Origin: Escherichia coli
GTDB lineage: Bacteria; Pseudomonadota; Gammaproteobacteria; Enterobacterales; Enterobacteriaceae
Length of the DNA: 64,000 bases
Direction: 5' to 3' (one strand)
Assembly: GCF_003991155.1 (NCBI RefSeq)
Contig: NZ_CP031293.1
Of the stretch, positions 6,397 to 64,000 are shown piece by piece. Position numbers and translations under genes: made by a program. The notes beneath the pieces are model-generated. The model made no database searches. It had not been told where the DNA came from and saw only the letters and a program-made list of their open reading frames with translations. The stretch's first letter is position 1; each line of letters begins with the position of its first letter.

Positions 6397-6406
6397 GTTC
6401 TTATTC

Positions 6407-16924: not shown

Positions 16925-16935
16925 TGCTATAAACA

Positions 16936-26182: not shown

Positions 26183-26194
26183 TTGAAAAATGGC

Positions 26195-28135: not shown

Positions 28136-28893
28136 GGTAACCACATAGCCAGTGCCAACGTTTTATCATCATCCGTACGCTCGTTTACCGCCGGGCTGGA
28201 CAAAAACTGCTTTAACAATTCAGGTAATAAATCGAGTTGTTCCTGCGTTGCTGACGCCAGTCCATTGAAAAACGGGGTAAAGAAAGGCACATGCGGAGAA
28301 TTATCCAGCATATTTAACGCCAGTCTCTGAATACCATCCGTAAATGCTGCAACTCTATGCGCACGCTCAGTGCTGGTGAAAGTTTCCAGTCTGGAAACGG
28401 CATCTTCATCGGTAATGAAATGCGTCATGTTGGCATATTCACCCACCATCGGCGTGAGAGGCAATTGCAGACCGTGACCCAAATCTACCACCACGCCGCC
28501 ATCGCCAATCTGCATAATCAAGGTGCCGTCAGGCGATGAAATCAGTCCCAGAAATGTGCAGGCAAAATCGCGAACCGCTAATTCTTTGGCTTCCGCCTCG
28601 GCAAAAAGTCGCTGACGAACGGTCAGCACAATATCCGTTGCGAGGACATCATTAAGCCCCAATTCCCCGCCCTGCACTTTTTGCATCATATAAGCCATCG
28701 CTTCATTGACGGCAAGCGTCGCACCTTCGCCACCCTGCGAAACGCTGCCTGCGCCATCAGCGACAAATACCGTCAATAATGGCTGCTGGTCTTCTAGCCA
28801 GGCAACCTGCATCTGGCAGGCATCCTGGCAAGGCAAGTCCGCGCTGATGTGCGACGTTCCAACGGTTGATGCATAGACCAGACGCCAGCTCAC
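28132..28893 (-). CDS. pphC: PP2C-family Ser/Thr protein phosphatase
   Basis: 253-aa ORF; PP2C metal-binding signature ([16 protein letters not shown]); ATGA overlap with yegL stop at 28890-28893. Confidence 0.85.
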
Positions 28894-29549
28894 ACTGACG
28901 TCCAGCCTTTTGGCGCTTCCAGCACAACTTCCGTTCCCGGCGTGGAGCGGGAAACCGAACGCAGCGAACTGGATAACCAGCTAAACAGTTCACGGAATTG
29001 TAATCCCTGCAGTGGCAAAGGCTGACGAACGCTGATTTGTGCCAAAGTCTTCATATCCGCCCCCTGAACACCGATGGAAAAGAAGGCAAACTTCTTATCT
29101 TCTTCCCCCTGAAACACTTTGTTGGCGGCAGCCTGCCACTCATCGGTTGGAGCGCCATCAGTGATCAGGAAAATCCACGGGCGATAATACGAAATACCAT
29201 TGGCACGATACTCACGTTTGCGCTCCTCAACCATATTCAGGGCTTTGGTAATGGCAGCGCCCATTGGTGTATCGCCCTGGGCAAACAGGATGGGCGGGAA
29301 AAAATTAGCGGCGCTGGTAAAGGGTTGTTCCACATGCACCGGGCCGAACGTCACAATACCGAGTTCCACTCTTTTTAAGGCCAGCGAATCGGCAAGCAGC
29401 TCATCGCGAAAGGTAACCAATCCGGCGTTAAGTTCATTAATGGGTCTACCGTTCATAGAACCAGAAACATCCAGCAGCAAAATGCAGGGGCAACGTGGTT
29501 CCGGGTTACTGGCAAAATCGCTGGTGGCAAACGTGATTTGTTCGCTCAT
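28890..29549 (-). CDS. yegL: von Willebrand factor A domain protein (TerY-like)
   Basis: 219-aa ORF; MIDAS motif DVSGSM plus downstream ITDG. Confidence 0.85.
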
Positions 29550-29695
29550 AAGAAATCCTTTCTTAGAGAATTATTGAGGTCCGGTATCATACCGATTGCA
29601 ATAATGAAATAAGAGCAAACGAAGAAACTTTCAGAATTAGGCCCGGCGGCGCAGAAAATTTTGCTATTCGCCTCGCAAGAACGGAGAGCCGTCGA

Positions 29696-29724
29696 TTGAC
29701 ACTAAGGGCGGAGTGACATAATTT
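29696..29724 (+). promoter_or_regulatory. sigma70-like promoter of first Sib RNA
   Basis: ttgaca (29696-29701), 17-nt spacer, taattt (29719-29724); equivalent ttgaca-N17-tacttt recurs in each later repeat (e.g. 30031-30059). Confidence 0.5.
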
Positions 29725-29730
29725 CAGGAG

Positions 29731-29877
29731 TGAGGGTTAGGGAGAGGTTTCCCCCTCCCCCTGGTGTTCTTAGTAAGCCTGGAAGCTAATCACTAAGAGT
29801 ATCACCAGTATGATGACGTGCTTCATCATAACCCTTTCCTTATTAAAAGTCCTCTTCTCCGGGAGAGGGTTTCCCGT
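29731..29877 (+). ncRNA. sib: Sib antisense RNA, copy 1 (approximate ends)
   Basis: Antisense to ibs copy 1, between the promoter and a GC hairpin plus T-rich tract (~29855-29880); ends inferred from recalled K-12 sibA geometry. Confidence 0.55.
29770..29829 (-). CDS. ibs: Ibs type I toxin peptide, copy 1 (MMKHVIILVILLVISFQAY)
   Basis: 19-codon minus-strand ORF read by hand; hydrophobic peptide matching the Ibs family; too short for the ORF track. Confidence 0.75.
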   Translation of the reverse strand: MMKHVIILVILLVISFQAY

Positions 29878-30065
29878 TTCAGCGTCCCGCTGAAATCGTC
29901 GGCTTACCTCCTTTCGCCCTGAATGCAGTCTATCGCTAACGCGTGAACAAAATAGTTTCCTCTGTGATTATTGCGTAACGTCTCGCAAAGAATATTTGCT
30001 GGCAGGATCGCAGACTACAAAGCCTGCGGATTGACAATCTGATTGTGAAGGCATACTTTCAGGAG

Positions 30066-30205
30066 TGAGGGTAGAGCGGGGTTTCCCCCGCCCTGGTAGT
30101 CTTAGTAAGCGGGGAAGCTTATGACTAAGAGCACCACGATGATGAGTATCTTCATCATGACCCTTTCCTTATTTAAGGCCCCTTCCTCGGGAGGGGCTTT
30201 CCCGT
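30066..30205 (+). ncRNA. sib: Sib antisense RNA, copy 2 (approximate ends)
   Basis: Promoter ttgaca 30031-30036 / tacttt 30054-30059; terminator hairpin ~30177-30207. Confidence 0.55.
30102..30158 (-). CDS. ibs: Ibs type I toxin peptide, copy 2 (MMKILIIVVLLVISFPAY)
   Basis: 18-codon minus-strand ORF read by hand. Confidence 0.75.
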   Translation of the reverse strand: MMKILIIVVLLVISFPAY

Positions 30206-30393
30206 TTCAGCGTCCCGCTGAAATCGTCGGCCTACCTCCTTTTGCCCTGAATACAGTCTATCGCTAACGCGTGAACAAAATAGTTTCCTCTGTGATTATT
30301 GCGTAACGTCTCGCAAAGAATATTTGCTGGCAGGATCGCAGACTACAAAGCCTGCGGATTGACAATCTGATTGTGAAGGCATACTTTCAGGAG

Positions 30394-30533
30394 TGAGGGT
30401 AGAGCGGGGTTTCCCCCGCCCTGGTAGTCTTAGTAAGCGGGGAAGCTTATGACTAAGAGCACCACGATGATGAGTATCTTCATCATGACCCTTTCCTTAT
30501 TTAAGGCCCCTTCCTCGGGAGGGGCTTTCCCGT
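30394..30533 (+). ncRNA. sib: Sib antisense RNA, copy 3 (approximate ends)
   Basis: Same repeat architecture, 328 bp downstream of copy 2. Confidence 0.55.
30430..30486 (-). CDS. ibs: Ibs type I toxin peptide, copy 3 (MMKILIIVVLLVISFPAY)
   Basis: 18-codon ORF identical to copy 2. Confidence 0.75.
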   Translation of the reverse strand: MMKILIIVVLLVISFPAY

Positions 30534-30721
30534 TTCAGCGTCCCGCTGAAATCGTCGGCCTACCTCCTTTTGCCCTGAATACAGTCTATCGCTAACGCGT
30601 GAACAAAATAGTTTCCCCTGTGATTATTGCGTAACGACTCGCAAAGAATATTTGCTGGCAGGATCGCAGACTACAAAGCCTGCGGATTGACAATCTGATT
30701 GTGAAGGCATACTTTCAGGAG

Positions 30722-30861
30722 TGAGGGTAGAGCGGGGTTTCCCCCGCCCTGGTAGTCTTAGTAAGCCGGGAAGCTTATGACTAAGAGCACCACGATGATG
30801 ATCCACTTCATCATGACCCTTTCCTTATTTAAGGCCCCTTCCTCGGGAGGGGCTTTCCCGT
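30722..30861 (+). ncRNA. sib: Sib antisense RNA, copy 4 (approximate ends)
   Basis: Same repeat architecture. Confidence 0.55.
30758..30814 (-). CDS. ibs: Ibs type I toxin peptide, copy 4 (MMKWIIIVVLLVISFPAY)
   Basis: 18-codon minus-strand ORF read by hand. Confidence 0.75.
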   Translation of the reverse strand: MMKWIIIVVLLVISFPAY

Positions 30862-31049
30862 TTCAGCGTCCCGCTGAAATCATCGGCTTACCTCCTTTCG
30901 CCCTGAATGCAGTCTATCGCTGACTTGCGGATAAAATAGTTTCACATGTGATTATTGCGTGACGTCTCGCAAAGAATATTTGCTGGCAGGATCGCAGACT
31001 GCAAAGCCTGCGGATTGACAATCGGACCGTGAAGGCATACTTTCAGGAG

Positions 31050-31189
31050 TGAGGGTAGAGCGGGGTTTCCCCCGCCCTGGTAGTCTTAGTATGCTGGGTA
31101 GCTAATCACTAAGAGCACCACGATGATGAGTAGCTTCATCATGACCCTTTCCTTATTTAAGGCCCCTTCCTCGGGAGGGGCTTTCCCGT
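31050..31189 (+). ncRNA. sib: Sib antisense RNA, copy 5 (approximate ends)
   Basis: Same repeat architecture. Confidence 0.55.
31086..31142 (-). CDS. ibs: Ibs type I toxin peptide, copy 5 (MMKLLIIVVLLVISYPAY)
   Basis: 18-codon minus-strand ORF read by hand. Confidence 0.75.
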   Translation of the reverse strand: MMKLLIIVVLLVISYPAY

Positions 31190-31420
31190 TTCAGCGTCCC
31201 GCTGAAATCATCGGCTTACCTCCTTTCGCCCTGAATGCAGTCTATCGCTAACGCGTAGATAAAATAGTTTCCTGTGTTATTACTGGATGCGTGCTCGCAA
31301 AAGTGCCTGCCATTCAGACGATTCCCGACAGTGTTTCATAATTCCTCCATTTTTCTCCCTTATTGGCTGGCTACACTAGTATCATTCCGCGAAACGTTTC
31401 AGGAAGAGAAACTCTTAACG

Positions 31421-32668
31421 ATGAAAGGCAGTTATAAATCCCGTTGGGTAATCGTAATCGTGGTGGTTATCGCCGCCATCGCCGCATTCTGGTTCTGGCA
31501 AGGCCGCAATGACTCCCGGAGTGCAGCCTCAGGGGCGACGAAACAAGCGCAGCAATCGCCAGCGGGTGGTCGCCGTGGTATGCGTGCCGGTCCATTAGCC
31601 CCGGTTCAGGCAGCGACCGCCGTAGAACAAGCTGTGCCACGTTATCTCACCGGGCTTGGCACCATTACCGCCGCTAATACTGTTACGGTGCGCAGCCGCG
31701 TGGACGGTCAACTGATGGCGTTGCATTTCCAGGAAGGCCAGCAGGTCAAAGCTGGCGATTTACTGGCAGAAATTGACCCCAGCCAGTTCAAAGTTGCATT
31801 AGCACAAGCCCAGGGCCAACTGGCAAAAGATAAAGCCACGCTTGCCAACGCCCGCCGTGACCTGGCGCGTTATCAACAACTGGTAAAAACCAATCTCGTA
31901 TCTCGTCAGGAACTGGATGCCCAACAAGCGCTGGTCAGTGAAACCGAAGGTACCATTAAGGCTGATGAAGCAAGCGTCGCCAGCGCGCAATTGCAACTCG
32001 ACTGGAGCCGTATCACCGCACCAGTTGATGGTCGCGTTGGTCTCAAGCAGGTTGATGTTGGTAACCAAATCTCCAGTGGTGATACCACCGGGATTGTGGT
32101 GATCACCCAGACGCATCCTATCGATTTGCTCTTTACCCTGCCGGAAAGCGATATCGCTACCGTAGTACAGGCGCAAAAAACCGGAAAACCGCTGGTTGTT
32201 GAAGCCTGGGATCGCACCAACTCGAAGAAATTAAGTGAAGGCACGCTGTTAAGTCTCGATAACCAAATCGATGCCACTACCGGTACGATTAAAGTGAAAG
32301 CACGCTTTAATAATCAGGATGATGCGCTGTTTCCCAATCAGTTTGTTAACGCGCGTATGTTAGTCGACACCGAACAAAACGCCGTGGTGATCCCCACCGC
32401 CGCCCTGCAAATGGGCAATGAAGGCCATTTTGTCTGGGTGCTGAATAGCGAAAACAAGGTCAGCAAACATCTGGTGACGCCGGGCATTCAGGACAGTCAG
32501 AAAGTGGTGATCCGCGCAGGTATTTCTGCGGGCGATCGCGTGGTGACGGATGGCATTGATCGCCTGACCGAAGGGGCGAAAGTGGAAGTGGTGGAAGCCC
32601 AGAGCGCCACCACTTCGGAAGAGAAAGCCACCAGCCGCGAATACGCGAAAAAAGGAGCACGCTCCTGA
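31421..32668 (+). CDS. mdtA: RND efflux membrane fusion protein
   Basis: ORF-track entry trimmed to [19 protein letters not shown]... (415 aa). Confidence 0.92.
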
Positions 32669-42915: not shown

Positions 42916-43168
42916 TTACGATGCCGGGCGTGGGTTGTTGGCGTCCGGCTTTATATCAAAACAACTCTTAGTTATTGATAATTAAGATTAACCTCCGCCA
43001 TTAAAATAGTGGGCACTGACGAGCACTCGTTGTGCTTTCTTTGTTTACCATCCCATACTTATCTTCCTGAACATGTTCATATGCCAAAATATCTTCTAAT
43101 ACTTTCGTGACGCTATCCGGTTTATGAAATACACTGATGTAAGATTTTTACTTACAGGCGGGTGTAAA

Positions 43169-43420
43169 ATGGCCAGAACGATGACGGTTGATCTCGGCGA
43201 TGAGTTGCGTGAATTTATCGAGTCCTTAATTGAATCCGGCGACTATCGCACCCAAAGCGAAGTGATCCGTGAGTCGCTGCGCTTACTTCGAGAAAAGCAA
43301 GCAGAGTCTCGCCTGCAAGCGTTACGTGACATGCTCGCTGAAGGGTTGAGTAGTGGTGAAGCTCAGCCGTGGGAAAAGGACGCGTTTTTACGGAAGGTGA
43401 AAGCAGGGATAAGGAAATAA
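43169..43420 (+). CDS. ParD-like antitoxin (ribbon-helix-helix)
   Basis: MARTMTVDLGDELREFIESLIESGDYRTQSEVIRESLRLL... typical of ParD/COG3609-type antitoxins; the start is uncertain (alternative in-frame starts at 43124 and 43181). Confidence 0.65.
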   Translation: MARTMTVDLGDELREFIESLIESGDYRTQSEVIRESLRLLREKQAESRLQALRDMLAEGLSSGEAQPWEKDAFLRKVKAGIRK

Positions 43421-43421
43421 T

Positions 43422-43718
43422 GTGCGTACTATAAAACTCATGCCAAAAGCCAATGAGGATTTAGAAGGCATCTGGTATTACAGCTATCACCATTTCGGCG
43501 AACCACAAGCCGACAGATATGTGGAACATCTTTCAGACGTTCTCCAGATTCTGAGTAACAATAATATAGGTACGCCCAGACCTGAATTAGGCGAAGGTAT
43601 TTTTGTTCTTCCTTTTGAACGCCACGTAATTTATTTCCTGCAATCGCCAGAGGAAATTATCGTCATTCGTATCCTTAACCAAAACCAGGACGCCTCCAGA
43701 CATTTACACTGGAGCTAA
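43422..43718 (+). CDS. ParE-like toxin (RelE/ParE superfamily)
   Basis: GTG start 2 nt after antitoxin stop with aagga SD; N-terminal LMPKANEDLEGIWYY motif characteristic of ParE. Confidence 0.65.
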   Translation: MRTIKLMPKANEDLEGIWYYSYHHFGEPQADRYVEHLSDVLQILSNNNIGTPRPELGEGIFVLPFERHVIYFLQSPEEIIVIRILNQNQDASRHLHWS

Positions 43719-43820
43719 ACCCGCCGATTGCGCTACAATGCCCGCCCTTAAAGTGGGGGCACTCCCCTAACCGCTTCATCAGGTGAAGCGGATCTGACCT
43801 GTCATCAGAACGAGAGAATT

Positions 43821-49192: not shown

Positions 49193-50548
49193 TTATTCTG
49201 CGAGAACGGCTTTCTCTTGTTTAATAAAACCACGCGCTCTACGCCAGGTCATGAAAATACCGGTCAGATAAATTGCGCCGATAATAATGAAACCGGGAAT
49301 ATTTTGCGGGGAGAAAACCTGAATCAGTAACCAGGTAATGGGAGAACCGCCCTGATCCATTGAAGCCACCATACCCCCGGCTTTTAACGCGCCCGCATTA
49401 GCCGCCAGTTGGGTGTGCAAACCAATAGTTTGCGTAGCGATCCACAGGGTGATGCTCATAATGATGACACCCGAGATTAAGGTGCGGAACAGATTTCCAC
49501 GATGCACCGCGACCGCCATCGCCACAAAGAAGCCGATGGTGGCAAGGTCGCCAAACGGCAGCACCTGATTACCCGGCACACAAACAGCAATTAAAATGGT
49601 GAGCGGGATAAAAATCAGGCTTGCCGATACCACTGCCGTATGCCCCAGCAACAACGCCGGATCAAGGCCAATCAGGAACTCCTGACCGCCGAACTTCGCC
49701 TGTAAACGACTACGGGCCTGCTTAGCGATGGGCGTTAAACCATCCATGATAGGTTTAATCACCCGTGGCATCAGCAGCATAACTGCCGCCGTTTTTACCG
49801 CCAGCTGCAATACACCTTTGACATCGTAACCCGCAAGGATGCCGATAATCAGCCCCATCACAAAACCCACGGTGACCGGTTCGCCAAAAGGGCCAAATTT
49901 GCGCTGAATATCATCGGCGCTAAATTTAATTCGGTTAACGCCTGGGATTTTCTCGATGATAGCATCGACCAGCACCGCAATCGGCCCCATATACGCCGAC
50001 GTACCGTGCGGAATAGCAATGCCTTCCAGCTCAAAGAAATTTCGGGTATCGCGGGCAAACCAGTCGCCGAGCTTATAAACAAACGCCGCGTGAATTACCA
50101 CACCCGCCATCCCTATCATCCATGAACCGGTTGCCAGATGCAGCAACGCGCCGGTGAAGGTCATATGCCAGATATTCCAGATATCAACATTTACCACCCG
50201 CGTCATACGGGTCAGTAACATCGCCACGTTAACCAGAATCGCAATCGGAATCGCCACCAGCGCAATTTGCGACGCCCAGGTCATGGGTGAAGAGCCCGGC
50301 CAGCCGACATCGACCACATGCAGATTCAGGTCGAAATTTTCCGCCATCGCTTTCGCCGCCGGACCAATGGAATCCAGCATTAAGCCAATCACAAGGCCAA
50401 TGCCAACAAAGCCAATCCCGATATGCAGACCCGCTTTAAAGCAATCGCCTGCCTTCATGCCTAATATTTTAGAAAAAATAATGATGACAATCGGCAGCAT
50501 CACCGTAGGGCCGAGGTCGAGAATATAACGCATGACTTCTGAAAACAT
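49193..50548 (-). CDS. gatC: PTS galactitol-specific EIIC
   Basis: 451-aa polytopic membrane ORF. Confidence 0.93.
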   Translation of the reverse strand: MFSEVMRYILDLGPTVMLPIVIIIFSKILGMKAGDCFKAGLHIGIGFVGIGLVIGLMLDSIGPAAKAMAENFDLNLHVVDVGWPGSSPMTWASQIALVAIPIAILVNVAMLLTRMTRVVNVDIWNIWHMTFTGALLHLATGSWMIGMAGVVIHAAFVYKLGDWFARDTRNFFELEGIAIPHGTSAYMGPIAVLVDAIIEKIPGVNRIKFSADDIQRKFGPFGEPVTVGFVMGLIIGILAGYDVKGVLQLAVKTAAVMLLMPRVIKPIMDGLTPIAKQARSRLQAKFGGQEFLIGLDPALLLGHTAVVSASLIFIPLTILIAVCVPGNQVLPFGDLATIGFFVAMAVAVHRGNLFRTLISGVIIMSITLWIATQTIGLHTQLAANAGALKAGGMVASMDQGGSPITWLLIQVFSPQNIPGFIIIGAIYLTGIFMTWRRARGFIKQEKAVLAE

Positions 50549-50551
50549 AGG

Positions 50552-50836
50552 TCACCCCTGTAAGATAGTCAGAATTTTATTTTGTAATGCTTCGATACCG
50601 ACACCAGAAACAAAAGGCATGCCGTGAACTAACGGAATATTGCCAAAACTACGATCTACCCTGGCAGTGGTGCATATCAAATGCACGCCATCCATATAGG
50701 TTTCTATTTCATTAACCCGACACTGGATTAATTCAACAGGAATATTATGACTCTGACACAACTCTTTAATTTCTTCCGCCGCCATCGTAGAGGTCGCAAC
50801 CGCACCTCCGCAAGCGACAATAATTTTGCGTTTCAT
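50552..50836 (-). CDS. gatB: PTS galactitol-specific EIIB
   Basis: 94-aa [25 protein letters not shown]... Confidence 0.93.
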
Positions 50837-50866
50837 AAATAGTCCTTTTTATTGTTACAGAGGGAT

Positions 50867-51319
50867 TTATTCGTCTGAATCTAAAACATACTTTGTGAAG
50901 TATTCCTTTAACTGGGTTTCAGGAAGAGTGATTAGTGTCTCGACGATATCGGGCTGTTGTAACTTGCCAAATAAACAGCGTAAAAGTTTCAATTGCTGCT
51001 GCGGATTTTCCACAATCAACGCAATAACCAACGATACCGCCACGTCGTTATCATCATCCGCTTGCTGAAAATGAACTTTATTTGTTGGCCTTAACAGATA
51101 AATGGCTGACGACTTAGCATGAATCGCCTCACAATGTGGTATTGCAATGGCGTGCTGCTCAAGCATTATCCCGGTAGGGAATTCTGCTTCTCTGGCAATT
51201 AATGCCTGTGGCCAGGTATCATGAACCACACCTTTCGCGAGCATCTCATTACCGATATGGGTTAAAACTTCGCTACGATCGACAAAAGAAATTCCGCTAC
51301 GAACAAACAGGTTAGTCAT
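50867..51319 (-). CDS. gatA: PTS galactitol-specific EIIA
   Basis: 150-aa ORF. Confidence 0.93.
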   Translation of the reverse strand: MTNLFVRSGISFVDRSEVLTHIGNEMLAKGVVHDTWPQALIAREAEFPTGIMLEQHAIAIPHCEAIHAKSSAIYLLRPTNKVHFQQADDDNDVAVSLVIALIVENPQQQLKLLRCLFGKLQQPDIVETLITLPETQLKEYFTKYVLDSDE

Positions 51320-51328
51320 ATACCGTCC

Positions 51329-53528
<2,200 letters not shown>

Positions 53529-53624
53529 TTAAATGTCGAGATAACGATCACAAAAACGACAATTCGAAAATTAATCAGAATGACAGGCAAAAAAACGGCC
53601 TCCCGATAGGGAAGCCGTAGCAAA

Positions 53625-53700
53625 GTGCGCGTGTTTTTATGCCGGATGCGACGTAAACGCCTTTTCCGTTATACGGGGTAGTGCTGTTCGTATAAGGCGT
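53625..53700. repeat. REP-like palindromic elements
   Basis: gccggatgcgacgtaaacgcc and flanking palindromes between gatY and fbaB. Confidence 0.45.
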
Positions 53701-53701
53701 A

Positions 53702-54754
53702 TCAGGCGATAGTAATTTTGCTATCGAGATAAACGTCCTGCACGGCGTTAATCAGTTTCACGCCGTCAGCCATCGATTTCTTGAACGCCTTACGTCCAAG
53801 AATCAGCCCCATTCCGCCAGCGCGTTTGTTGATAACCGCAGTACGCACTGCATCGCTGAGGTCAGTTTCACCGCCCGCAGCACCGCCGGAGTTTATCAAC
53901 CCAGCCCGGCCCATATAGCAGTTAGCTAACTGATAACGCACCAGATCAATCGGGTTTTCGCTGGTCAATTTGCTGTAAACACGATCGTCGGTATAACCGT
54001 AATTAATCGCTTTATAGCCGCCGTTATTTTCCGCCATTTTTTGTTTGACGATATCCGCACCTATGGTCGCCGCCAGATGGTTCGCCTGACCAGTCAGGTC
54101 GGCGGAAACATGGTAATCAACGCCATCTTTCTTAAAGGCGGAGTTACGCAAATAGGCCCACAGCACTGTCACCATGCCCAGCTCGTGCGCACGTTCAAAA
54201 GCCGCAGAAATTTCTTCAATCTGGCGACGTGACTCTTCCGAGCCAAAATAGATAGTCGCACCAACCGCCACCGCGCCCATATTGAACGCCTGCTCCACGC
54301 TGGCATACAGCGTTTGATCGTAGGTATTCGGGTAACTTAGCGTCTCGTTGTGATTAAGTTTGACGAGGAATGGAATGCGATGCGCGTAACGCCGCGATAC
54401 CGATGCCAGCACGCCGTAAGTTGACGCCACACAGTTACAGCCCGCTTCGATCGCCAGTTCAACAATGTTTTTCGGGTCAAAGTAGAGCGGGTTAGCGGCA
54501 AATGAAGCTCCGGCAGAGTGCTCAACGCCCTGGTCAACCGGCAGAATAGAAAGATATCCTGTGCCAGCCAGACGCCCGGTGTTGTACAACGTCTGCATAT
54601 TACGTAACACCGCTGGCGGGCGATTATTGTCAATCATCACGCGGTCTACGTAGTCATGTCCGGGGAGATAAAGCTGGTCAGAAGGAATAGTCATACAACG
54701 GTGCTGTAAAAGGTTGTCGGCGTCTTTGCCAAGCAACTGCGCAATATCTGTCAT
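53702..54754 (-). CDS. fbaB: fructose-bisphosphate aldolase class I
   Basis: ORF-track entry trimmed to [20 protein letters not shown]... (350 aa). Confidence 0.92.
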
Positions 54755-55010
54755 TACTATGCTCCCGTAAATTCCGATTGGATATCGGCTATGGATTGTC
54801 CTGGCCCGCCTTTTGCGGGCAATCATAATCCTGGTCGTTACGGGCGAGTTTTTCCATCTTTTGGATGTTTTTTCAGCGTTTTCTGTTGGCTCGATTCATC
54901 AGAAAAAATGTTACAGCGGTCAAGCTTTCACCGCAAAGGTATTTAAAAGGTATTATTAAGTGGTATTGTCATCGCGTACCTTACATTACCTGTCATGAAG
55001 GAATTAAAAG

Positions 55011-56288
55011 ATGAAAACAACAGCAAAGCTGTCGTTCATGATGTTTGTTGAATGGTTTATCTGGGGCGCGTGGTTTGTGCCATTGTGGTTGTGGTTAAGT
55101 AAAAGCGGTTTTAGTGCCGGAGAAATTGGCTGGTCGTATGCCTGTACCGCCATTGCGGCGATCCTGTCGCCGATTCTGGTTGGCTCCATCACTGACCGCT
55201 TTTTCTCGGCACAGAAAGTGCTGGCGGTATTGATGTTCGCTGGTGCGGTGCTGATGTATTTCGCCGCGCAACAGACCACTTTTGCCGGGTTCTTCCCGTT
55301 ACTGCTGGCCTACTCGCTAACCTATATGCCGACCATTGCGCTGACTAACAGTATCGCTTTTGCCAACGTGCCGGATGTGGAGCGTGATTTCCCGCGCATT
55401 CGTGTGATGGGGACTATCGGCTGGATTGCCTCTGGTCTGGCATGTGGATTCTTGCCGCAAATGCTGGGTTATGCCGATATCTCACCGACGAACATCCCGC
55501 TGCTGATTACTGCCGGAAGTTCTGCTCTGCTTGGTGTGTTTGCGTTTTTTCTGCCCGACACGCCACCAAAAAGCACCGGCAAAATGGATATTAAAGTCAT
55601 GCTCGGCCTGGATGCGCTGATCCTGCTGCGCGATAAGAACTTCCTCGTCTTTTTCTTCTGTTCATTCCTGTTTGCGATGCCACTGGCGTTCTATTACATC
55701 TTTGCCAACGGTTATCTGACCGAAGTTGGCATGAAAAACGCCACTGGCTGGATGACGCTCGGCCAGTTCTCTGAAATCTTCTTTATGCTGGCATTGCCGT
55801 TTTTCACTAAACGCTTTGGTATCAAAAAGGTATTGTTGCTTGGTCTGGTCACCGCTGCGATCCGCTATGGCTTCTTTATTTACGGTAGTGCGGATGAATA
55901 TTTCACCTACGCGTTACTGTTCCTCGGTATTTTGCTGCACGGCGTAAGTTACGATTTTTACTACGTTACCGCATACATCTATGTCGATAAAAAAGCCCCC
56001 GTGCATATGCGTACCGCCGCGCAGGGGCTGATCACGCTCTGCTGCCAGGGCTTCGGCAGTTTGCTCGGCTATCGTCTTGGCGGTGTGATGATGGAAAAGA
56101 TGTTCGCTTATCAGGAACCGGTAAACGGACTGACTTTCAACTGGGCCGGGATGTGGACTTTCGGCGCGGTGATGATTGCCATTATCGCCGTGCTGTTCAT
56201 GATTTTTTTCCGCGAATCCGACAACGAAATTACGGCTATCAAGGTCGATGATCGCGATATTGCGTTGACACAAGGGGAAGTTAAATGA
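55011..56288 (+). CDS. yegT: nucleoside:H+ symporter family MFS transporter
   Basis: 425-aa 12-TM ORF; ATG with gaaggaa SD. Confidence 0.88.
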   Translation: MKTTAKLSFMMFVEWFIWGAWFVPLWLWLSKSGFSAGEIGWSYACTAIAAILSPILVGSITDRFFSAQKVLAVLMFAGAVLMYFAAQQTTFAGFFPLLLAYSLTYMPTIALTNSIAFANVPDVERDFPRIRVMGTIGWIASGLACGFLPQMLGYADISPTNIPLLITAGSSALLGVFAFFLPDTPPKSTGKMDIKVMLGLDALILLRDKNFLVFFFCSFLFAMPLAFYYIFANGYLTEVGMKNATGWMTLGQFSEIFFMLALPFFTKRFGIKKVLLLGLVTAAIRYGFFIYGSADEYFTYALLFLGILLHGVSYDFYYVTAYIYVDKKAPVHMRTAAQGLITLCCQGFGSLLGYRLGGVMMEKMFAYQEPVNGLTFNWAGMWTFGAVMIAIIAVLFMIFFRESDNEITAIKVDDRDIALTQGEVK

Positions 56289-57289
56289 AAACAGAACGTA
56301 TTCTCGGTGCTCTTTATGGGCAGGCGTTAGGGGATGCGATGGGGATGCCCTCCGAGCTTTGGCCACGCAGCCGCGTTAAAGCACACTTTGGCTGGATTGA
56401 CCATTTTCTGCCTGGACCAAAGGAGAATAACGCAGCCTGTTATTTTAACCGCGCCGAATTCACCGACGATACCTCGATGGCGCTGTGTCTGGCGGATGCG
56501 TTACTGGAACGTGAAGGCGAGATCGATCCGGATCTGATTGGGCGTAATATTCTCGACTGGGCGCTGCGTTTCGACGCCTTTAACAAAAACGTACTAGGTC
56601 CGACCTCGAAGATTGCGCTTAACGCCATTCGCGACGGTAAACCCGTTGCTGAACTGGAAAATAACGGCGTGACCAACGGCGCAGCGATGCGCGTCTCGCC
56701 ATTAGGTTGTTTGCTTCCGGCGCGTGATGTTGATTCCTTTATTGATGATGTGGCGCTGGCCTCCAGCCCGACCCATAAATCCGATCTGGCAGTTGCAGGT
56801 GCGGTAGTCATCGCATGGGCGATTTCTCGTGCCATTGACGGAGAAAGCTGGTCAGCGATTGTTGATTCACTGCCTTCAATTGCGCGACATGCACAGCAAA
56901 AACGCATCACTACCTTCAGCGCCTCACTGGCAGCACGTCTGGAGATTGCGCTGAAAATTGTGCGCAATGCCGACGGCACCGAATCCGCCAGCGAACAGCT
57001 GTATCAGGTCGTTGGCGCAGGTACCAGCACTATTGAGTCCGTTCCGTGCGCCATTGCGCTGGTTGAACTGGCACAAACCGACCCGAATCGCTGCGCCGTC
57101 CTGTGCGCTAACCTTGGCGGCGACACAGACACCATAGGTGCTATGGCGACGGCAATTTGCGGCGCGTTGCATGGCGTTAACGCTATCGATCCTGCGTTAA
57201 AGGCGGAACTGGATGCGGTAAATCAGCTTGATTTCAACCGCTATGCCACAGCGCTGGCGAAGTATCGCCAACAACGGGAGGCGGTATGA
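56285..57289 (+). CDS. yegU: ADP-ribosylglycohydrolase-family protein
   Basis: 334-aa ORF; start overlaps yegT stop (ATGA). Confidence 0.85.
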   Translation: MKTERILGALYGQALGDAMGMPSELWPRSRVKAHFGWIDHFLPGPKENNAACYFNRAEFTDDTSMALCLADALLEREGEIDPDLIGRNILDWALRFDAFNKNVLGPTSKIALNAIRDGKPVAELENNGVTNGAAMRVSPLGCLLPARDVDSFIDDVALASSPTHKSDLAVAGAVVIAWAISRAIDGESWSAIVDSLPSIARHAQQKRITTFSASLAARLEIALKIVRNADGTESASEQLYQVVGAGTSTIESVPCAIALVELAQTDPNRCAVLCANLGGDTDTIGAMATAICGALHGVNAIDPALKAELDAVNQLDFNRYATALAKYRQQREAV

Positions 57290-58251
57290 GCAGCGCTCGA
57301 TTACACACGCTGCTGCCTGAATTAACCACGCGTCAGCCAGTGATGGTCGTCGGCGCGGCGGTCATTGATGTGATCGCCGACGCTTATGCCCTCCCCTGGC
57401 GTGGGTGCGATATCGAACTGAAACAGCAGAGCGTTAACGTTGGCGGCTGTGCACTGAATATTGCCGTGGCATTAAAGCGCCTCGGCATCGAAGCGGGTAA
57501 TGCCTTGCCGCTCGGTCAGGGGGTGTGGGCGGAGATTATTCGCAACCGGATGGCAAAAGAGGACTTAATCAGCCTGATCGATAACGCCGAAGGTGATAAC
57601 GGCTGGTGTCTGGCGCTGGTTGAGCCGGATGGCGAACGCACTTTTATGTCATTCAGCGGTGTGGAAAATCAGTGGAATCGCCAATGGCTGGCACGATTAA
57701 CCGTTGCGCCTGGCAGCCTGCTCTATTTTTCCGGTTATCAACTGGCCTCGCCCTGCGGCGAATTGTTAGTGGAATGGCTGGAAGAGCTGCAAGACGTGAC
57801 GCCATTTATCGATTTTGGCCCACGTATTGGCGATATCCCGGATGCATTACTGGCGCGGATCATGGCCTGTCGACCTTTAGTGTCACTCAATCGTCAAGAG
57901 GCTGAGATTGCCGCCGAACGTTTTGCTCTATCCGCAGAGATAACAACACTAGGCAAGCAATGGCAGGAGAAATTTGCCGCGCCGTTGATCGTTCGTCTCG
58001 ATAAAGAGGGCGCATGGTATTTCAGCAACGACGCTTCTGGCTGCATTCCGGCATTTCCAACGCAAGTTGTAGACACCATTGGGGCGGGCGACAGTCATGC
58101 CGGCGGCGTACTTGCCGGGCTGGCCTCTGGTCTGCCACTGGCGGATGCCGTATTACTGGGCAATGCAGTGGCGTCGTGGGTTGTCGGGCATCGGGGCGGT
58201 GATTGTGCGCCAACGCGCGAGGAACTACTCCTCGCACACAAAAACGTATAG
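57286..58251 (+). CDS. yegV: PfkB-family carbohydrate/nucleoside kinase
   Basis: 321-aa ORF; C-terminal GAGD motif (DTIGAGDSHAGG); start overlaps yegU stop. Confidence 0.85.
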   Translation: MSSARLHTLLPELTTRQPVMVVGAAVIDVIADAYALPWRGCDIELKQQSVNVGGCALNIAVALKRLGIEAGNALPLGQGVWAEIIRNRMAKEDLISLIDNAEGDNGWCLALVEPDGERTFMSFSGVENQWNRQWLARLTVAPGSLLYFSGYQLASPCGELLVEWLEELQDVTPFIDFGPRIGDIPDALLARIMACRPLVSLNRQEAEIAAERFALSAEITTLGKQWQEKFAAPLIVRLDKEGAWYFSNDASGCIPAFPTQVVDTIGAGDSHAGGVLAGLASGLPLADAVLLGNAVASWVVGHRGGDCAPTREELLLAHKNV

Positions 58252-58971
58252 ATCGCTGCGACAGTGGCTGATGCTGTACTCAATAGGCCGTTGCTGTTGG
58301 TCAAGCGCCACTTGCTTGATCACCAGCACCGGTATTTTGCTATCTAACTGAATATGTGACTGAAACTCGGCATCCGGCATCCGGGCGCTAACGCGGGAAC
58401 GCGTACGTTGTGGGTAAATGTGCTGGCTGCGGAAGTAGTCATAAAGAGAAATCCCGATGGCATCAACATCATGAATTAAATGTGCCGGAACCCACGATTC
58501 CTCAATCGATACCGCTTCTTCATCGACATAGCGAATACGCTTAAGCAAAAAGACATCACTTCCCGCTTCGACCGCCAGCTGCTGCGCAACTTCTTCGGGA
58601 CATTTCACGACACGCTTGTTAACCCATAGCGTATCGGGCTTTTTCCCGCGCAATACCACCTGCTGAGAAAAACCTCGCGCTTCTTTCAACGAGTATTCGA
58701 AGATGTTGTTGATCTGCGTACCGTAACCACGCGAACGCGTCACCACGCCCTCTTCTTCCAGCGCCTGCATCGCCTTGCGCACCGTAATGCGCGAAACGCC
58801 GGTTAACTGACTTAAATCACGCTCACCGGGCAAAATATTGCCATGCTCCAGCACCCCGCTGCGCACGGCATTTTTTACCGTTTCGGCAAACTTAATATAA
58901 AGCGGCGTGTTATCCGCCGCTAAAATACGTTCGTTCAGTTGGGCAATCAGCTGGGTATGCGCTTGTTCCAT
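58225..58971 (-). CDS. yegW: GntR/HutC-family transcriptional regulator
   Basis: 248-aa ORF; N-terminal GntR HTH (LPGERDLSQLTGVSRITVRKAM), UTRA-like C-domain; 27-nt convergent overlap with yegV. Confidence 0.88.
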   Translation of the reverse strand: MEQAHTQLIAQLNERILAADNTPLYIKFAETVKNAVRSGVLEHGNILPGERDLSQLTGVSRITVRKAMQALEEEGVVTRSRGYGTQINNIFEYSLKEARGFSQQVVLRGKKPDTLWVNKRVVKCPEEVAQQLAVEAGSDVFLLKRIRYVDEEAVSIEESWVPAHLIHDVDAIGISLYDYFRSQHIYPQRTRSRVSARMPDAEFQSHIQLDSKIPVLVIKQVALDQQQRPIEYSISHCRSDLYVFVCEE

Positions 58972-59022
58972 TTGTCTTTTTCCTGCCGGGGAGTCTGGTG
59001 GGAGTATATCACTGCTTCTTAT

Positions 59023-59841
59023 TTAAGGCGTTTCTTTAATCCCATCAACGAATCCCTGCAACTCCTCCTCTGTGCCATTAAACACATTAAAATCCACCGG
59101 ACCATTAATGCCATCTACCTGCCCACGGTCGGAATGCTGCCAGAAGCGCCAGGCCATGCCGTCATTGTCCGGACGACGTTGATAGTAGTGAGCCACCCAC
59201 CACGGATATTCATTGAAATAGCCCGCCAGATTCGTGTGATAAAAAACGGCTCCTGAGTAAATAATCGGCTTTTTCCCCGTACTTTTTTCGACCATTTTTA
59301 GCCACTGACTTACCCGCTTGCGTAATTCTTTTGCCGATAATTTTCCCCGTTCTTCTACGTCCAGCACGGCAGGGAAATCGCCTTGTGAGAAATCCACCGT
59401 TTGCAGAAATAATCTCGCCTGAACTGAAGCGGATACCGACGGGGAAAAATAATGATACGCCCCGCGCAGCAGGCCATTTTCGCGGCTTAGTTGCCAGTTA
59501 CGCGAAAAATAGGGGTCCACCAGCTTTTCGCCTTCCGTCGCCTTAATAAAGGCAAATTGTAAGCGAATACCGTTATCGCGCATTTTTGCCACCCGCTGCC
59601 AGTCGATTCGCTCCTGCCAGCGTGAAACATCAATACCATGAATGGTGTAACTGGCAGGAATGCGAATAGCAAAAGATTTGACCGGGCGATAACCGTAGAA
59701 GTGGATGTAGTCTTTAATCTGAATTGCTGTCGAATAGAAAAAATTCACCGTCTGACGCGGATAAATTGCAACGATGGAAATTAGCCCAAGAGCGCATAAT
59801 AAAGCGGTGAATTTTTTTCGACTGGTGATTCTCAGCTGCAT
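59023..59841 (-). CDS. yegX: glycoside hydrolase family 25 (lysozyme-like) protein
   Basis: Start trimmed to MQLRITSRKKFTALLCALGLISIV...; GH25 motifs (HGIDVSRWQ). Confidence 0.85.
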   Translation of the reverse strand: MQLRITSRKKFTALLCALGLISIVAIYPRQTVNFFYSTAIQIKDYIHFYGYRPVKSFAIRIPASYTIHGIDVSRWQERIDWQRVAKMRDNGIRLQFAFIKATEGEKLVDPYFSRNWQLSRENGLLRGAYHYFSPSVSASVQARLFLQTVDFSQGDFPAVLDVEERGKLSAKELRKRVSQWLKMVEKSTGKKPIIYSGAVFYHTNLAGYFNEYPWWVAHYYQRRPDNDGMAWRFWQHSDRGQVDGINGPVDFNVFNGTEEELQGFVDGIKETP

Positions 59842-59905
59842 TGGTTTCATCCCTGAATGTCAGCGCCAAAGGCTGACAATAACCAAAGCAGCTATAGTAC
59901 GGTGC

Positions 59906-60706
59906 TCACCACCAGGCGTGGAAGTGGTGAACCGGACCAATACCGTGACCAACTTCCAGCGTGTCGGCCTGGGCTAACGCCGATGAAAGCCAGCTTTTTG
60001 CCTCCTGTACGGTGTCAGCCCAGTTTGTATGGCGCGGGCGCAGTGCAGCCAACGCCGCAGAGAGCGTACAACCAGTGCCGTGAGTGTTTTTGGTCATAAT
60101 GCGCGGTGCGGTAAACCGTTGTTCACCCTCGCGGGTAAACAGCCAGTCCGGGCTTTGCTCATCATCCAGATGACCACCTTTCATTAGCACTGCGCCACAG
60201 CCCATCGCCAACAGCGATCGCCCTTGTTCCAGCATTTCCTGTTCGGTGCGCGCGTGTGGCGCGTCGAGCAAGGCGGCTGCTTCGGGCAAGTTTGGCGTTA
60301 TTAATGAAACATGTGGCAATAATCGACTGCGTAGCGTGGCAACTGCCGAAGGTGAAAGCAGCGGGTCGCCGCTTTTTGCCAGCATAACGGTGTCGAGTAC
60401 CACGTTTTGGATCTGATAACGTTGCAACCGTTCTGCCACCGCTTCAACAATATCGGTTTCCGCCAACATACCGATTTTAGTGGTGTCGATTCGCACATCA
60501 CTGAACACCGAATCGAGCTGGGCGGCGACAAAATCAGGCTCAATGCGATACACCGACTGTACGCCACGGGTATTTTGCGCCACCAGTGCAGTAATCACTG
60601 AGCAACCATAAGCGCCAAGTGCCGAGAAGGTTTTAAGATCGGCCTGAATCCCCGCACCACCACTCGGATCAGTACCGGCAATCGTCAGAGCGTTAATTCG
60701 TTTCAT
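59906..60706 (-). CDS. thiD: hydroxymethylpyrimidine / phosphomethylpyrimidine kinase
   Basis: 266-aa ORF MKRINALTIAGTDPSGGAGIQADLK... Confidence 0.95.
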   Translation of the reverse strand: MKRINALTIAGTDPSGGAGIQADLKTFSALGAYGCSVITALVAQNTRGVQSVYRIEPDFVAAQLDSVFSDVRIDTTKIGMLAETDIVEAVAERLQRYQIQNVVLDTVMLAKSGDPLLSPSAVATLRSRLLPHVSLITPNLPEAAALLDAPHARTEQEMLEQGRSLLAMGCGAVLMKGGHLDDEQSPDWLFTREGEQRFTAPRIMTKNTHGTGCTLSAALAALRPRHTNWADTVQEAKSWLSSALAQADTLEVGHGIGPVHHFHAWW

Positions 60707-60729
60707 GCCTGCACCTCCTGCGTCAATTG

Positions 60730-61491
60730 TCAGAGCGCATCAAGGAAATGTGGAACAAAACTGCCTGGCCCCTCGCTTCTGGCAACTGCGCGTTCTCCGG
60801 CTTGTTTCATCCAGTGACAGGCAGATGCGATATTTTCCAGCGTATCGCCTGGTAGCGCACAACAGGCAGCGACAACCGCCGATAATGCACAGCCAGTTCC
60901 TACCACTTTGGTCATTAGCGGATCGCCACCGTGAATGCCAACGATACGATGTCCATCGGTAACATAATCCACCTCGCCAGTGACCACGACGATTGCGCCA
61001 GTTTCCCGTGCCAGTGTTTGTGCAGCAGGTATCGCGTTAGCTGCGGCATCAGTGGTATCCACTCCCCGTCCGCCATTAGCAACGCCAGCTAATGCCATGA
61101 TTTCCGAAGCATTACCACGTATGGCGGTTGGCTTATGAGACAGAAGTTCCAGACAAAAACGGCGGCGATAATCGAGTGCACCCACCGCTACTGGATCAAG
61201 CGTCCAGGGTGTTTGAGAGCGTTTTGCCTGTTCAACGGCGGCACGCATCGCCTGTGCGCGTGGCTGCGTCAGCGTGCCAACGTTAATCAGCAACGCACTG
61301 GCGATTGCCGCAAACTGACTGGCCTCTTCGGTTTCGATGACCATCGCTGGCGATGCACCGAGCGCCAGTAAGGTATTGGCAGTAAAGGTTTGCACCACAT
61401 CATTGGTCATACAGTGCACAAGGGGGGAATGTTTGTGAAAAAGATGTAACGCGTGCGCAGATTGCGCGGAACTCAGCAGGTCGACTTGCAT
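60730..61491 (-). CDS. thiM: hydroxyethylthiazole kinase (C-terminus 9 codons shorter than the ATGA-coupled frame)
   Basis: 253-aa [21 protein letters not shown]...; in-frame TGA at 60730-60732, followed by 8 more sense codons and a second stop overlapping the thiD ATG. Confidence 0.9.
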
Positions 61492-61640
61492 AGTTTGCTC
61501 CTGCCATAACGTGAAGAAGCAATGACCTGGTGGTCCGTGACTTCCCTACGCTGGCATTATCCAGATCAGGTGATACGGGTATTTCTCAGCCTTCACGCAG
61601 AAGGGCACCCCGAGTCGTTTGGTTGAATCTCTATATTTTG
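61492..61640 (-). promoter_or_regulatory. TPP (thi-box) riboswitch in thiM leader
   Basis: Minus-strand leader contains GGGGUGCCCUUCUGCGUGAAGGCUGAGAAAUACCCGUAUCACCUGAUCUGGAUAAUGCCAGCGUAGGGAAGUCACGG... with CUGAGA thi-box and SD-sequestering stem. Confidence 0.85.
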
Positions 61641-61837
61641 TGCCAGCTTAGGGGAAGTGGCTTGCAGATGCAAGCTCGCCTCCATTAATTGCTTCTTCTC
61701 TGTGTACCCCATTTTGTACCCCATATCAGAAATGAAAAAGAAACATTTAACATCTATCATTCAGATGATAAAAACTATTGATTATCTTAATTTGCTAATT
61801 TATATTATTTATCTAAATTTGATAGGTGAGATAAAAA

Positions 61838-62077
61838 ATGACAGAAACCCAGATCTACGAGAACATTAAGCAAGCCATTAGCAGCGCACCACGAAATAGC
61901 CAAACGATGGAAATGCACCTCCAGATGATCAAATATGCTGACCATCTGAAAAAGGTTACGGCAAAAGAGTTTTGTGAAGGTGTAGGACTTAAAGCCAGCT
62001 TTGGTACAGAGTTCAGCAAAATGAGAAATCTTACCGAGCGACTCAAAGCTGCTGGACTTGACACCACGAAGTTATAA
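61838..62077 (+). CDS. hypothetical small protein (possible HTH regulator) of island
   Basis: 79-aa ORF in AT-rich DNA with ggtgaga SD; no family recognised; divergent from the minus-strand island genes. Confidence 0.35.
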   Translation: MTETQIYENIKQAISSAPRNSQTMEMHLQMIKYADHLKKVTAKEFCEGVGLKASFGTEFSKMRNLTERLKAAGLDTTKL

Positions 62078-62242
62078 AAAACAAATCATCAATATATTAT
62101 TTTTGTTTTCCAGACTTACTTGCATATGTTTCTACGAGCATAAAAAACAACAACCACCACATAGCTATTACCATAATAATGTTTTCCTTTTATATTAAAC
62201 AGAGAAATAGAATTAGAGCGTGGAATAGATGAATTCTATTTT

Positions 62243-62488
62243 CTATAACTTCTTGAGGTTGAATGTAGAAAAAGACAGCTCTTTCATTTCAATAACACCG
62301 AAATTTGATAGCTGTTTCAGCCAGAATTTTAAACCTGACTCAGAGCAACCTGCTCGATGTAACACATCGCTATATTTTAGCGGTGTTGGCTTTCCTTTAT
62401 AGAGGTAAACAAGCGTTTCGTAGGTGTGTTTTCCGGTGTCGTTACACTGAATGCGGTCTACTTGATTTTTTACTAAATATTGGATCAT
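62243..62488 (-). CDS. hypothetical small protein (possible winged-helix) of island
   Basis: 81-aa ORF 11 nt downstream of the 239-aa gene on the same strand. Confidence 0.4.
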   Translation of the reverse strand: MIQYLVKNQVDRIQCNDTGKHTYETLVYLYKGKPTPLKYSDVLHRAGCSESGLKFWLKQLSNFGVIEMKELSFSTFNLKKL

Positions 62489-62499
62489 AGTCCTCCTTA

Positions 62500-63219
62500 T
62501 TAAAATGGAATGTCAAAATCGTCCTCTTCTGTCTCAGGTATCGTGTATATATGTTCTCTTCCTGTAAATTCAGAAACCACTATTGAAATTAGCCTGTATG
62601 CCTCTATTTTATCGCCCTGCGTTTCAGCTAAAGCCCACTCAAGGGCTGCTTCTGTTGGCTGTCCATTCGGTTTGCAAATAGTGACACCGCCCCAAGGAAG
62701 CTCTGTTTTTTCCTGCTGAATAGAGCGTGTTGTTTCTAGTGTTTTTTTATCTTCCGTAGGGGGAAGCTGTTCAGGAACAGCTTTAACAGTAGATACTTGC
62801 TCTGTCTGTGGCTTTTCTGCATTTACAGAGGCTTTCGCTTCTCTTGGTGCTGTAATATGTGCATCTGTAAAGGGTAATGCTTTATAGAGTGATGTTTGAC
62901 CGTGGCGTGCCTCTACAGAAAGAACTCCCATATCAACAAACATATTTATAATATTGCGTACCTGACGATCACTAACCATTCCAATATTAGCTAATGTTTT
63001 TTGAGTAGCGTAACATTCTTGCCCTTGTTCATTGAATCCAGCTATATAGCTATAGATTTCAACGGCTGGCAGTGTAGCGGTGTATTCATTACCAGATGGT
63101 GAGTACCATTTTTTAAACATCTTCAACCATTGCTCAACAACTACATATTTTTGTTTACCATCTTTCTGATTTAGACATTTGGCTTTCGCTTCGGCAATTG
63201 TTTTGATATTTTTGATCAT
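62500..63219 (-). CDS. phage/island protein with wHTH-like N-domain and SSB-like acidic C-terminal tail (DDFDIPF)
   Basis: 239-aa ORF with perfect AGGAGG SD 5 nt upstream of ATG; low-complexity PQTEQ linker; final residues EEDDFDIPF resemble the SSB C-terminal tip. Confidence 0.6.
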   Translation of the reverse strand: MIKNIKTIAEAKAKCLNQKDGKQKYVVVEQWLKMFKKWYSPSGNEYTATLPAVEIYSYIAGFNEQGQECYATQKTLANIGMVSDRQVRNIINMFVDMGVLSVEARHGQTSLYKALPFTDAHITAPREAKASVNAEKPQTEQVSTVKAVPEQLPPTEDKKTLETTRSIQQEKTELPWGGVTICKPNGQPTEAALEWALAETQGDKIEAYRLISIVVSEFTGREHIYTIPETEEDDFDIPF

Positions 63220-63343
63220 TTAGTTCCTCCTTTGTAAGGACTGTAATTAGTAGTTCATTAACAAGTTTTGGAATTGATTTCCCTTCTGCCTTTGCGCGAT
63301 TTAACAACGCGTTATAAGTTGCAGAGTCAAAATTAATATTCAT
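63155..63343 (-). CDS. ribbon-helix-helix (CopG/Arc-like) small regulator
   Basis: ATG at 63343 with aggagaggaga SD; MNINFDSATYNALLNRAKAEGKSIPKLVNELL fits RHH beta-strand plus helices; 3' end overlaps the next gene by 65 nt, so the true stop/frame is uncertain. Confidence 0.45.
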   Translation of the reverse strand: MNINFDSATYNALLNRAKAEGKSIPKLVNELLITVLTKEELNDQKYQNNCRSESQMSKSERW

Positions 63344-63365
63344 TTGGTTTTCTCCTCTCCTGTTA

Positions 63366-63548
63366 TTATTCTTTCTCTGCTTCTGCCTTACGCAGTTCAT
63401 CAATAATCTTGAGTGCATCGTCAAAGCATTTTTCACGCTCTGGATAACCTCGACTCCTTGCCATATTACGATTCATTACTACTTGATGTCGTGTTAACTC
63501 ACCTTTTTTAAATGCCTCTACGACGTGTTCCGGTATAAACCATTTCAT
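63366..63548 (-). CDS. hypothetical small basic protein of island
   Basis: 60-aa ORF MKWFIPEHVVEAFKKGELTRHQ... directly upstream of the RHH gene on the same strand. Confidence 0.35.
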   Translation of the reverse strand: MKWFIPEHVVEAFKKGELTRHQVVMNRNMARSRGYPEREKCFDDALKIIDELRKAEAEKE

Positions 63549-64000
63549 AAAAAACTCCTTATTCAGTTAAAAGAAAAACACCTTGCAAGCCTGACGGCTT
63601 CAAAGTGCATTGATTTTGATTATTTAGAGAAGAATGTTTTTCTGTCCCTCTAGTACCTATTATTACATATAAATAAACATTTGTCAATATCTTTTCATAA
63701 AAAATCAGAACCTTTTCATGCACTTACATTTTTTCTTAGCGATTCGTGCTCTCCTGTGTAGTGCTATTCTTCATTACCAGCTAAAACGCTCTAAAACGCG
63801 TTCTAACGAAGTTTTGATAAAAGCAATACATTCTCTTATGTAATGGCTGTTTAGCTCGCCAGAGGCTTATTTAAGTGGCTTATTTTGTATTTGTTAGATG
63901 ATGATAGATATAAAACAGAGAGTTCTTAGATTAGTTACTTTATAAAACGCTCTGTAAAGCCCTGTAGTGAGTTTATATATGTAGGCAAAGCGGTTTCCAT

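Follow-up and report, generated by a model that had tools for sequence, protein, structure and literature searches.

The W254* change in thiM, by which tryptophan codon 254 is read as a stop, is very probably a real, clonally inherited nonsense polymorphism of a small Escherichia coli clone, in which ThiM would remain partly functional and thiD would be preserved. The change was found in a stretch of 64,000 nucleotides (the window), in which thiM and thiD lie on the minus strand. In its present form, the thiM coding sequence occupies 60730..61491 and, according to the list of open reading frames, consists of 253 codons followed by a premature TGA, so that ThiM ends ...HFLDAL at 253 aa. The premature TGA is codon 254 (60732..60730, minus strand), which is the Trp codon TGG in relatives, and the base that follows it is C, giving a UGA-C context. 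The minus strand reads ...CAT TTC CTT GAT GCG CTC TGA CAA TTG ACG CAG GAG GTG CAG GCA TGA AAC GAA... at this place. Eight sense codons, QLTQEVQA (60729..60706, minus strand), which were the last of the ancestral thiM and encode the same eight residues that end K-12 ThiM, are thereby orphaned and, barring read-through of the UGA, no longer translated. They are followed by a second TGA, the ancestral thiM stop (60705..60703, minus strand), which overlaps the ATG of thiD (60706..60704, minus strand) in the ancestral ATGA stop/start junction (60706..60703, minus strand). The thiD gene itself (59906..60706, minus strand; HMP / HMP-P kinase) is intact in the list of open reading frames, encodes 266 aa and is identical to that of relatives.

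The first-pass annotation had described a TGA in thiM at 60730-60732, followed by an open run of QLTQEVQA up to a second stop that forms an ATGA with the thiD start at 60703-60706, and direct reading of the sequence, together with the list of open reading frames for the first stop, showed both features to be present. The distance of 24 nt to the ATGA junction that it gave is right for the second stop but not for the thiD ATG: the final base of the GCA codon serves as the A of this ATG, which for that reason starts 23 nt past the premature stop. The upstream stop and the thiD start do not overlap in this allele, the first in-frame stop being at 60732..60730, whereas they overlap by 4 nt in the RefSeq annotation of relatives. 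Since eight open codons are expected by chance with a frequency of approximately (61/64)^8 = 0.68, the open run is not significant alone, and it is comparative evidence that decides.

The whole window was compared with other genomes by BLAST bit scores, locus L003 and a DNA alignment. Positions 1-25000 matched upwards of 20 complete RefSeq genomes without a difference (BLAST bit score 46167, a perfect match), positions 25001-50000 differed by two SNPs from the best genomes, and positions 50001-64000 differed from the nearest complete genome, NZ_AP021933.1, at the single base 60730. On the plus strand, this base is T here and C in relatives; on the coding strand, the codon is TGA versus TGG, that is, W254*. 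In the RefSeq annotation of NZ_AP021933.1, K-12 and O157:H7, thiM has a length of 789 nt (262 aa) and overlaps thiD by 4 nt. K-12 ThiM, translated from NC_000913.3, consists of 262 aa and ends ...DALWQLTQEVQA / FLDALWQLTQEVQA, and K-12 as well as all other Escherichia ThiM proteins examined end ...DALWQ(L/S/M)T(Q/P)EV(Q/K)A. It had been claimed that the ancestral ThiM was nine residues longer, that it was coupled to thiD via ATGA and that its TGG had changed to TGA here. These claims were borne out by the length of 262 aa in K-12 and relatives against 253 aa here, by the TGG of the nearest genome, which is otherwise identical over 14 kb, and by the overlap annotated in relatives. The K-12 C-terminus that had been given also agrees with the translation from NC_000913.3, ...FLDALWQLTQEVQA.

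The operon of the window and K-12 thiMD (b2104-b2103) have the same order (riboswitch, thiM, thiD, yegX) and the same ATGA junction sequence, ThiM of the window is about 95% identical to that of K-12, and ThiD is intact. They differ in that codon 254 is TGA rather than TGG here, that thiM stops 23 nt ahead of the thiD ATG without overlap, and that an island separates the leader from the native promoter. Complete E. coli genomes were searched with an 81-nt stretch that has the site at its centre, and the locus was present in 5,400 of 5,426. The exact 81-mer was found in none of these 5,400 genomes; the best match had an identity of 98.8% with one mismatch, a value that fits TGG alone or TGA plus a second nearby SNP, which identity bands do not separate. 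If thiM genes of E. coli in general terminated at this codon, the proposed truncation would lose its meaning; only clonal relatives of the window were found to stop there, the exact 81-mer being absent from the complete genomes.

The 253-aa ThiM was found as an exact match in a collection of 15 billion proteins, under at least four GenBank accessions (AZR89783.1, HAJ7704568.1, HAJ7744444.1 and HAJ7843514.1) and in Logan. It is encoded on 17 contigs, which form three groups (L004, L005 and L006). The contig from NCBI assembly GCA_013078545.1 (L004, which stands for 12 similar places) and that from Logan SRR22019963 (L005, which stands for 4 similar places) both read CTC TGA CAA TTG. Both contigs were read directly and have TGACAATTG within one shared haplotype of 3 kb: each contains the exact 153-mer that surrounds the site, and each is the same as the window over 3,000 aligned nt (alignment A2), where column 844 is the one position at which the TGG genome departs. 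Among the 17 contigs, some isolates may be represented by both an NCBI and a Logan assembly, and the number of independent isolates is therefore at least about 4-5, not 16. The third group, a metagenome contig from ENA (L006), was rejected as a carrier of the allele. This contig ends ...GCGCTCTG, two bases into codon 254, and its partial gene call of 253 residues is thus due to the contig end and not to a stop codon; a synonymous difference sets it apart as well, as does a K-12-like rcnR neighbour. It was also considered whether L005, which starts 83 nt upstream of thiM, represented a different genomic context, and this was rejected as an assembly break in the 82-nt duplicated aptamer repeat.

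Four other E. coli ThiM backgrounds, that of K-12 among them, were looked up by exact sequence as their 253-aa truncations, and none of these was in the protein collection. This absence points to a single origin of the TGA allele in one clone. A recurrent mutation hotspot was rejected on the same negative look-up of W254* on the four backgrounds, and a synthetic or planted mutation was rejected in view of the public assemblies that contain the allele. Very probably, then, a single C-to-T transition at window position 60730 (G-to-A on the coding strand) in the recent ancestor of the clone changed codon 254 from TGG to TGA.

The effect of the truncation on ThiM was considered next to its orthologues and in structural terms. 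Nine of 262 residues are lost (254-262), which is 3.4% of the length; relative to orthologues, the stop is premature (253 versus 262 aa), as in a nonsense pseudogene. The truncated ThiM matches the Pfam family HK (PF02110) with 349.2 bits (cut-off 27) over residues 15-253, corresponding to model positions 1-241 of 247, and the full-length ThiM matches it with 359 bits over model positions 1-247, so the truncation drops only positions 242-247. All of the more than 100 invariant columns (alignment A1), which extend up to L253, are kept, including the GTGC motif G198-T199-G200-C201 with the active-site Cys. Across 17 aligned enterobacterial orthologues, D251, A252 and L253 never vary, all but one have W or Y at position 254, and a variable tail of 6-9 residues past 254 is present in every one. 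None of the homologues examined naturally ends at position 253. The last helix of the AlphaFold model (mean pLDDT 87, pTM 0.89) spans residues 245-261, and the stop at 253 removes its second half; the C-terminal helix is thus incomplete (profile positions 242-247, residues 254-262).

The nearest solved homologue, ThiM of Klebsiella pneumoniae (PDB 6JYY / 6K28, 257 aa; E = 1.7e-110 for 6JYY against the full-length allele), shares FLDAL and the aromatic residue, which is Y, and extends approximately 4-5 residues past the end of the ThiM of the window. The ThiM domain of yeast THI6 has the same motif, IDALYRLTRE, and the equivalent of position 254 is Ser in the structure of B. subtilis ThiK. ThiM of S. 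aureus is trimeric, its active sites lie where the subunits meet, and an Asp close to the C-terminus makes a conserved H-bond between protomers (PMC4785402). This interface Asp is probably the counterpart of E. coli D251, judging from the motif, and it would be kept here, two residues from the new chain end. The main product would be ThiM(1-253), in which half of the C-terminal helix would be gone and the invariant residues, the catalytic core and FLDAL would be kept. ThiM(1-253) would probably fold and retain some thiazole-kinase activity or more, but its stability may drop. As to the degree, substantial activity and severe impairment would have roughly even odds.

ThiM is a thiazole-salvage kinase, and de novo thiamin synthesis has an essential step that depends on ThiD (PMC3020362). 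Since ThiM serves salvage only, polarity on thiD would outweigh the loss of ThiM. The Shine-Dalgarno sequence of thiD, AGGAGGUG (60719..60712, minus strand), lies 11-18 nt downstream of the premature stop, with a spacing of 7 nt between GGAGG and AUG, and its duplex with the 16S 3' end has an energy of -11.6 kcal/mol. Its predicted pairing partner is CAUUUCCU (60750..60743, minus strand), formed by thiM codons 248-250, which lies upstream of the premature stop and is still translated. In an 81-nt fold, the minimum free energy hairpin (-15.6 kcal/mol) was the same in the TGA and TGG alleles, and the SNP was located in the hairpin loop. The Shine-Dalgarno sequence was predicted to be paired in naked RNA in both alleles, with a P(unpaired) of 0.01-0.03. 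When a ribosome footprint was imposed at the premature stop, the hairpin was predicted to open, and P(unpaired) of the Shine-Dalgarno sequence rose from 0.01 to 0.42. A 114-nt fold gave the same pairing, which was not better than that of shuffled controls (z = -0.7); masking of the Shine-Dalgarno sequence by this hairpin is therefore a plausible model only.

The thiD Shine-Dalgarno sequence is within reach of ribosomes that finish thiM, and the predicted masking arm is still translated. Ribosomes would thus still traverse the part of thiM predicted to hide the thiD Shine-Dalgarno sequence, and this strong Shine-Dalgarno sequence, situated between the new stop and the AUG, would largely preserve thiD expression. 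The 24 untranslated nucleotides are too short for Rho-dependent polarity, given the requirements for Rho loading. Because thiD keeps its strong Shine-Dalgarno sequence, its translation probably stays coupled to that of thiM. The arrangement resembles coupling by unmasking of a downstream Shine-Dalgarno sequence, in that the thiD Shine-Dalgarno sequence likewise lies inside the ancestral thiM frame and is predicted to pair with codons 248-250. It differs from such systems in that termination here occurs 23 nt before the AUG and not on the AUG, and in that the hairpin is predicted and statistically undistinctive. As ThiM serves only thiazole salvage, W254* would be nearly neutral and could persist.

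The context of the premature stop bears on how much full-length ThiM could still be made. Poole and colleagues are said to have found, in 1995, that UGAC is the weakest stop. RF2 of K-12 is unusually weak, so that read-through in a wild isolate is probably lower than the figures for K-12. These figures, which refer to read-through of UGA by Trp-tRNA(Trp) in competition with RF2, are approximately 2% at 37 C and 4% at 25 C (PMC10570021). A C at position +4 weakens bacterial termination, especially at UGA (PMC5289835). At UGA-C, the leakiest bacterial stop context, ribosomes at the percent level would insert Trp, giving the wild-type 262-aa ThiM; because the ancestral codon was Trp, the product of read-through would be exactly the wild-type protein, ending at the original ATGA.

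The same stop, +4 base and near-cognate tRNA are known from the autoregulatory UGA-C of prfB and from generic UGA read-through. In contrast to prfB, the thiM site shows no sign of selection or of a stimulatory element, and it is an accidental result of a Trp-to-opal mutation. A search of Rfam at the gathering threshold over 59000-64000 returned the TPP riboswitch only and no recoding element or SECIS, and the local fold around the stop was not distinctive (z = -0.7 and -0.3). Nor is the in-frame stop conserved, the exact 81-mer occurring in 0 of the 5,400 genomes, the truncation being absent on the four other backgrounds, and the orthologues having W or Y. Selenocysteine insertion with a SECIS and programmed read-through were therefore rejected: a stop that is not conserved and for which no RNA element was detected is not programmed recoding.

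The leader of thiM contains a TPP riboswitch (61526..61622, minus strand), which is a full-length match to Rfam RF00059 with 71.2 bits against a gathering threshold of 54.3. An integrative element of approximately 7.7 kb is inserted inside the aptamer of this riboswitch, with 82 nt of aptamer sequence repeated exactly and in direct orientation on its two sides (61544..61625 in the window). Island DNA occupies 61626-64000 of the window, and the full element is found in locus L008 at about 540-8270; its genes encode a tyrosine integrase, an HNH endonuclease, a recombinase-family protein, HTH proteins and hypothetical proteins. Next to rcnR, the native thiM promoter together with one aptamer copy now directly precedes the integrase gene. 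The copy of the aptamer that is proximal to thiM has kept the native expression platform and has island DNA upstream, and a simple scan of 61623-61900 (minus strand), upstream of this riboswitch copy, revealed no sigma-70 consensus promoter. In strains with the island, thiMD could be transcribed from an island promoter or by read-through from the minus-strand island genes at 62243-63548. Of 5,426 complete genomes, 77 had the island segment (61640-64000 of the window) at a coverage of at least 80%, and fragments of the island with about 84% identity were present in many genomes. In O157:H7 (L009, 9001-11150), a remnant of 2.3 kb that lacks the integrase separates the thiM riboswitch from rcnR, and the presence of a remnant at the same site indicates a recurrent insertion site. 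No description of this attachment site was found in the literature searched.

Two other explanations of the stop itself have to be weighed. That it is a consensus or base-call error in the source assembly, the strain being truly TGG, would be compatible with a single substitution whose exact 81-mer occurs in 0 of the 5,400 complete RefSeq genomes with the locus. However, the identical TGA allele is present in the independent assemblies GCA_013078545.1 and SRR22019963 and under the GenBank accessions, of which there are at least four, and the site is outside any homopolymer, which makes such an error very improbable. The first-pass annotation had left open whether the change was a real variant or a base-call error; a real variant is favoured, given that the same TGA haplotype occurs in both assemblies. 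The second explanation is that the UGA-C is an adaptive, "programmed" leaky stop, maintained for two ThiM isoforms or for a retuned ThiM:ThiD ratio. Under such selection, mostly ThiM(1-253) and a few percent of the wild-type protein would be made, and the coupling of thiM to thiD would be retuned. UGA-C being the leakiest context, the restoration of the exact ancestral residue by the near-cognate tRNA and the persistence of the allele for long enough to be sampled repeatedly are what this explanation would lead one to expect. Any TGG-to-TGA mutation, however, has this property by chance, and the allele is confined to one haplotype and, as the exact 81-mer, absent from 5,400 genomes. Considering also that Rfam revealed no recoding RNA element in 59000-64000 and that the SNP leaves the predicted local fold unchanged, both maintenance of a leaky stop by selection and the retuned output that it would give are scarcely credible. 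If true, a selected leaky stop could matter where the island in the riboswitch has already severed thiMD from the native promoter.

A clonal nonsense polymorphism with a partly functional product, which is the preferred reading, has further to be weighed against true loss of function, in which ThiM would be unstable or inactive, thiM would be a young pseudogene and thiazole salvage would be lost in the clone. The aromatic residue at 254 (W/Y) and the L-T-x-E tail, both removed by the stop, are conserved as far as yeast THI6, and the chain ends two residues past the invariant D251, the probable inter-protomer H-bond residue of an enzyme with its active sites at trimer interfaces; for these reasons, ThiM(1-253) could be unstable or inactive. 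None of the natural homologues examined ends at 253, and ThiM is a dispensable salvage enzyme, which also agrees with its loss. Against this, every invariant column and every column of the catalytic core is retained, merely 3.4% of the length is gone, the tail is constant neither in length nor in sequence among enterobacteria, the B. subtilis structure has Ser at position 254, and read-through with Trp would give some wild-type enzyme. Complete loss of ThiM function is thus a possible outcome, although a somewhat doubtful one, and partial function of ThiM in the clone is preferred.

Several other features of the window were recorded. Two further SNPs relative to the nearest complete genomes, both nonsynonymous, are located in the mdtABCD-baeSR operon: MdtB has S979 (A in relatives; window position 35602), and BaeS has E403 (Q in relatives; window position 41487). 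Hence, all three private SNPs in the 64 kb (mdtB, baeS and thiM W254*) alter protein sequence. The mdtB and baeS coordinates taken from NZ_AP021933.1 are off by 1 nt relative to STLIN_13, and this offset indicates a 1-bp indel between NZ_AP021933.1 and the window within about 25000-32668. The RefSeq annotation of identical relatives places five tandem Ibs-family type I toxin genes, spaced approximately 330 nt apart, at about 29770-31145 on the minus strand; K-12 presumably has two Ibs genes at this locus, ibsA and ibsB. Two small toxin-antitoxin pairs are likewise annotated in identical relatives, namely a pair consisting of a RelE/ParE-family toxin and an HTH protein between yegH and asmA (about 16313-16931, plus strand) and a ParD/ParE pair between yegP and yegQ (about 43125-43719, plus strand).

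It may be concluded that thiMD of the window is the well-known salvage operon with an ordinary nonsense polymorphism, the allele of which is already in public databases; no new biology is implied by W254*. The allele is a lineage marker, and its use lies mainly in annotation and strain typing. In annotation, thiM should be given as a 253-aa or possibly impaired product and should not be "repaired". The allele also provides a natural example of a Trp-to-opal change at which near-cognate read-through would restore the exact wild-type protein. In addition, it is a natural uncoupling of an ATGA overlap, and it could be used to test how far upstream a stop can shift before coupling fails.
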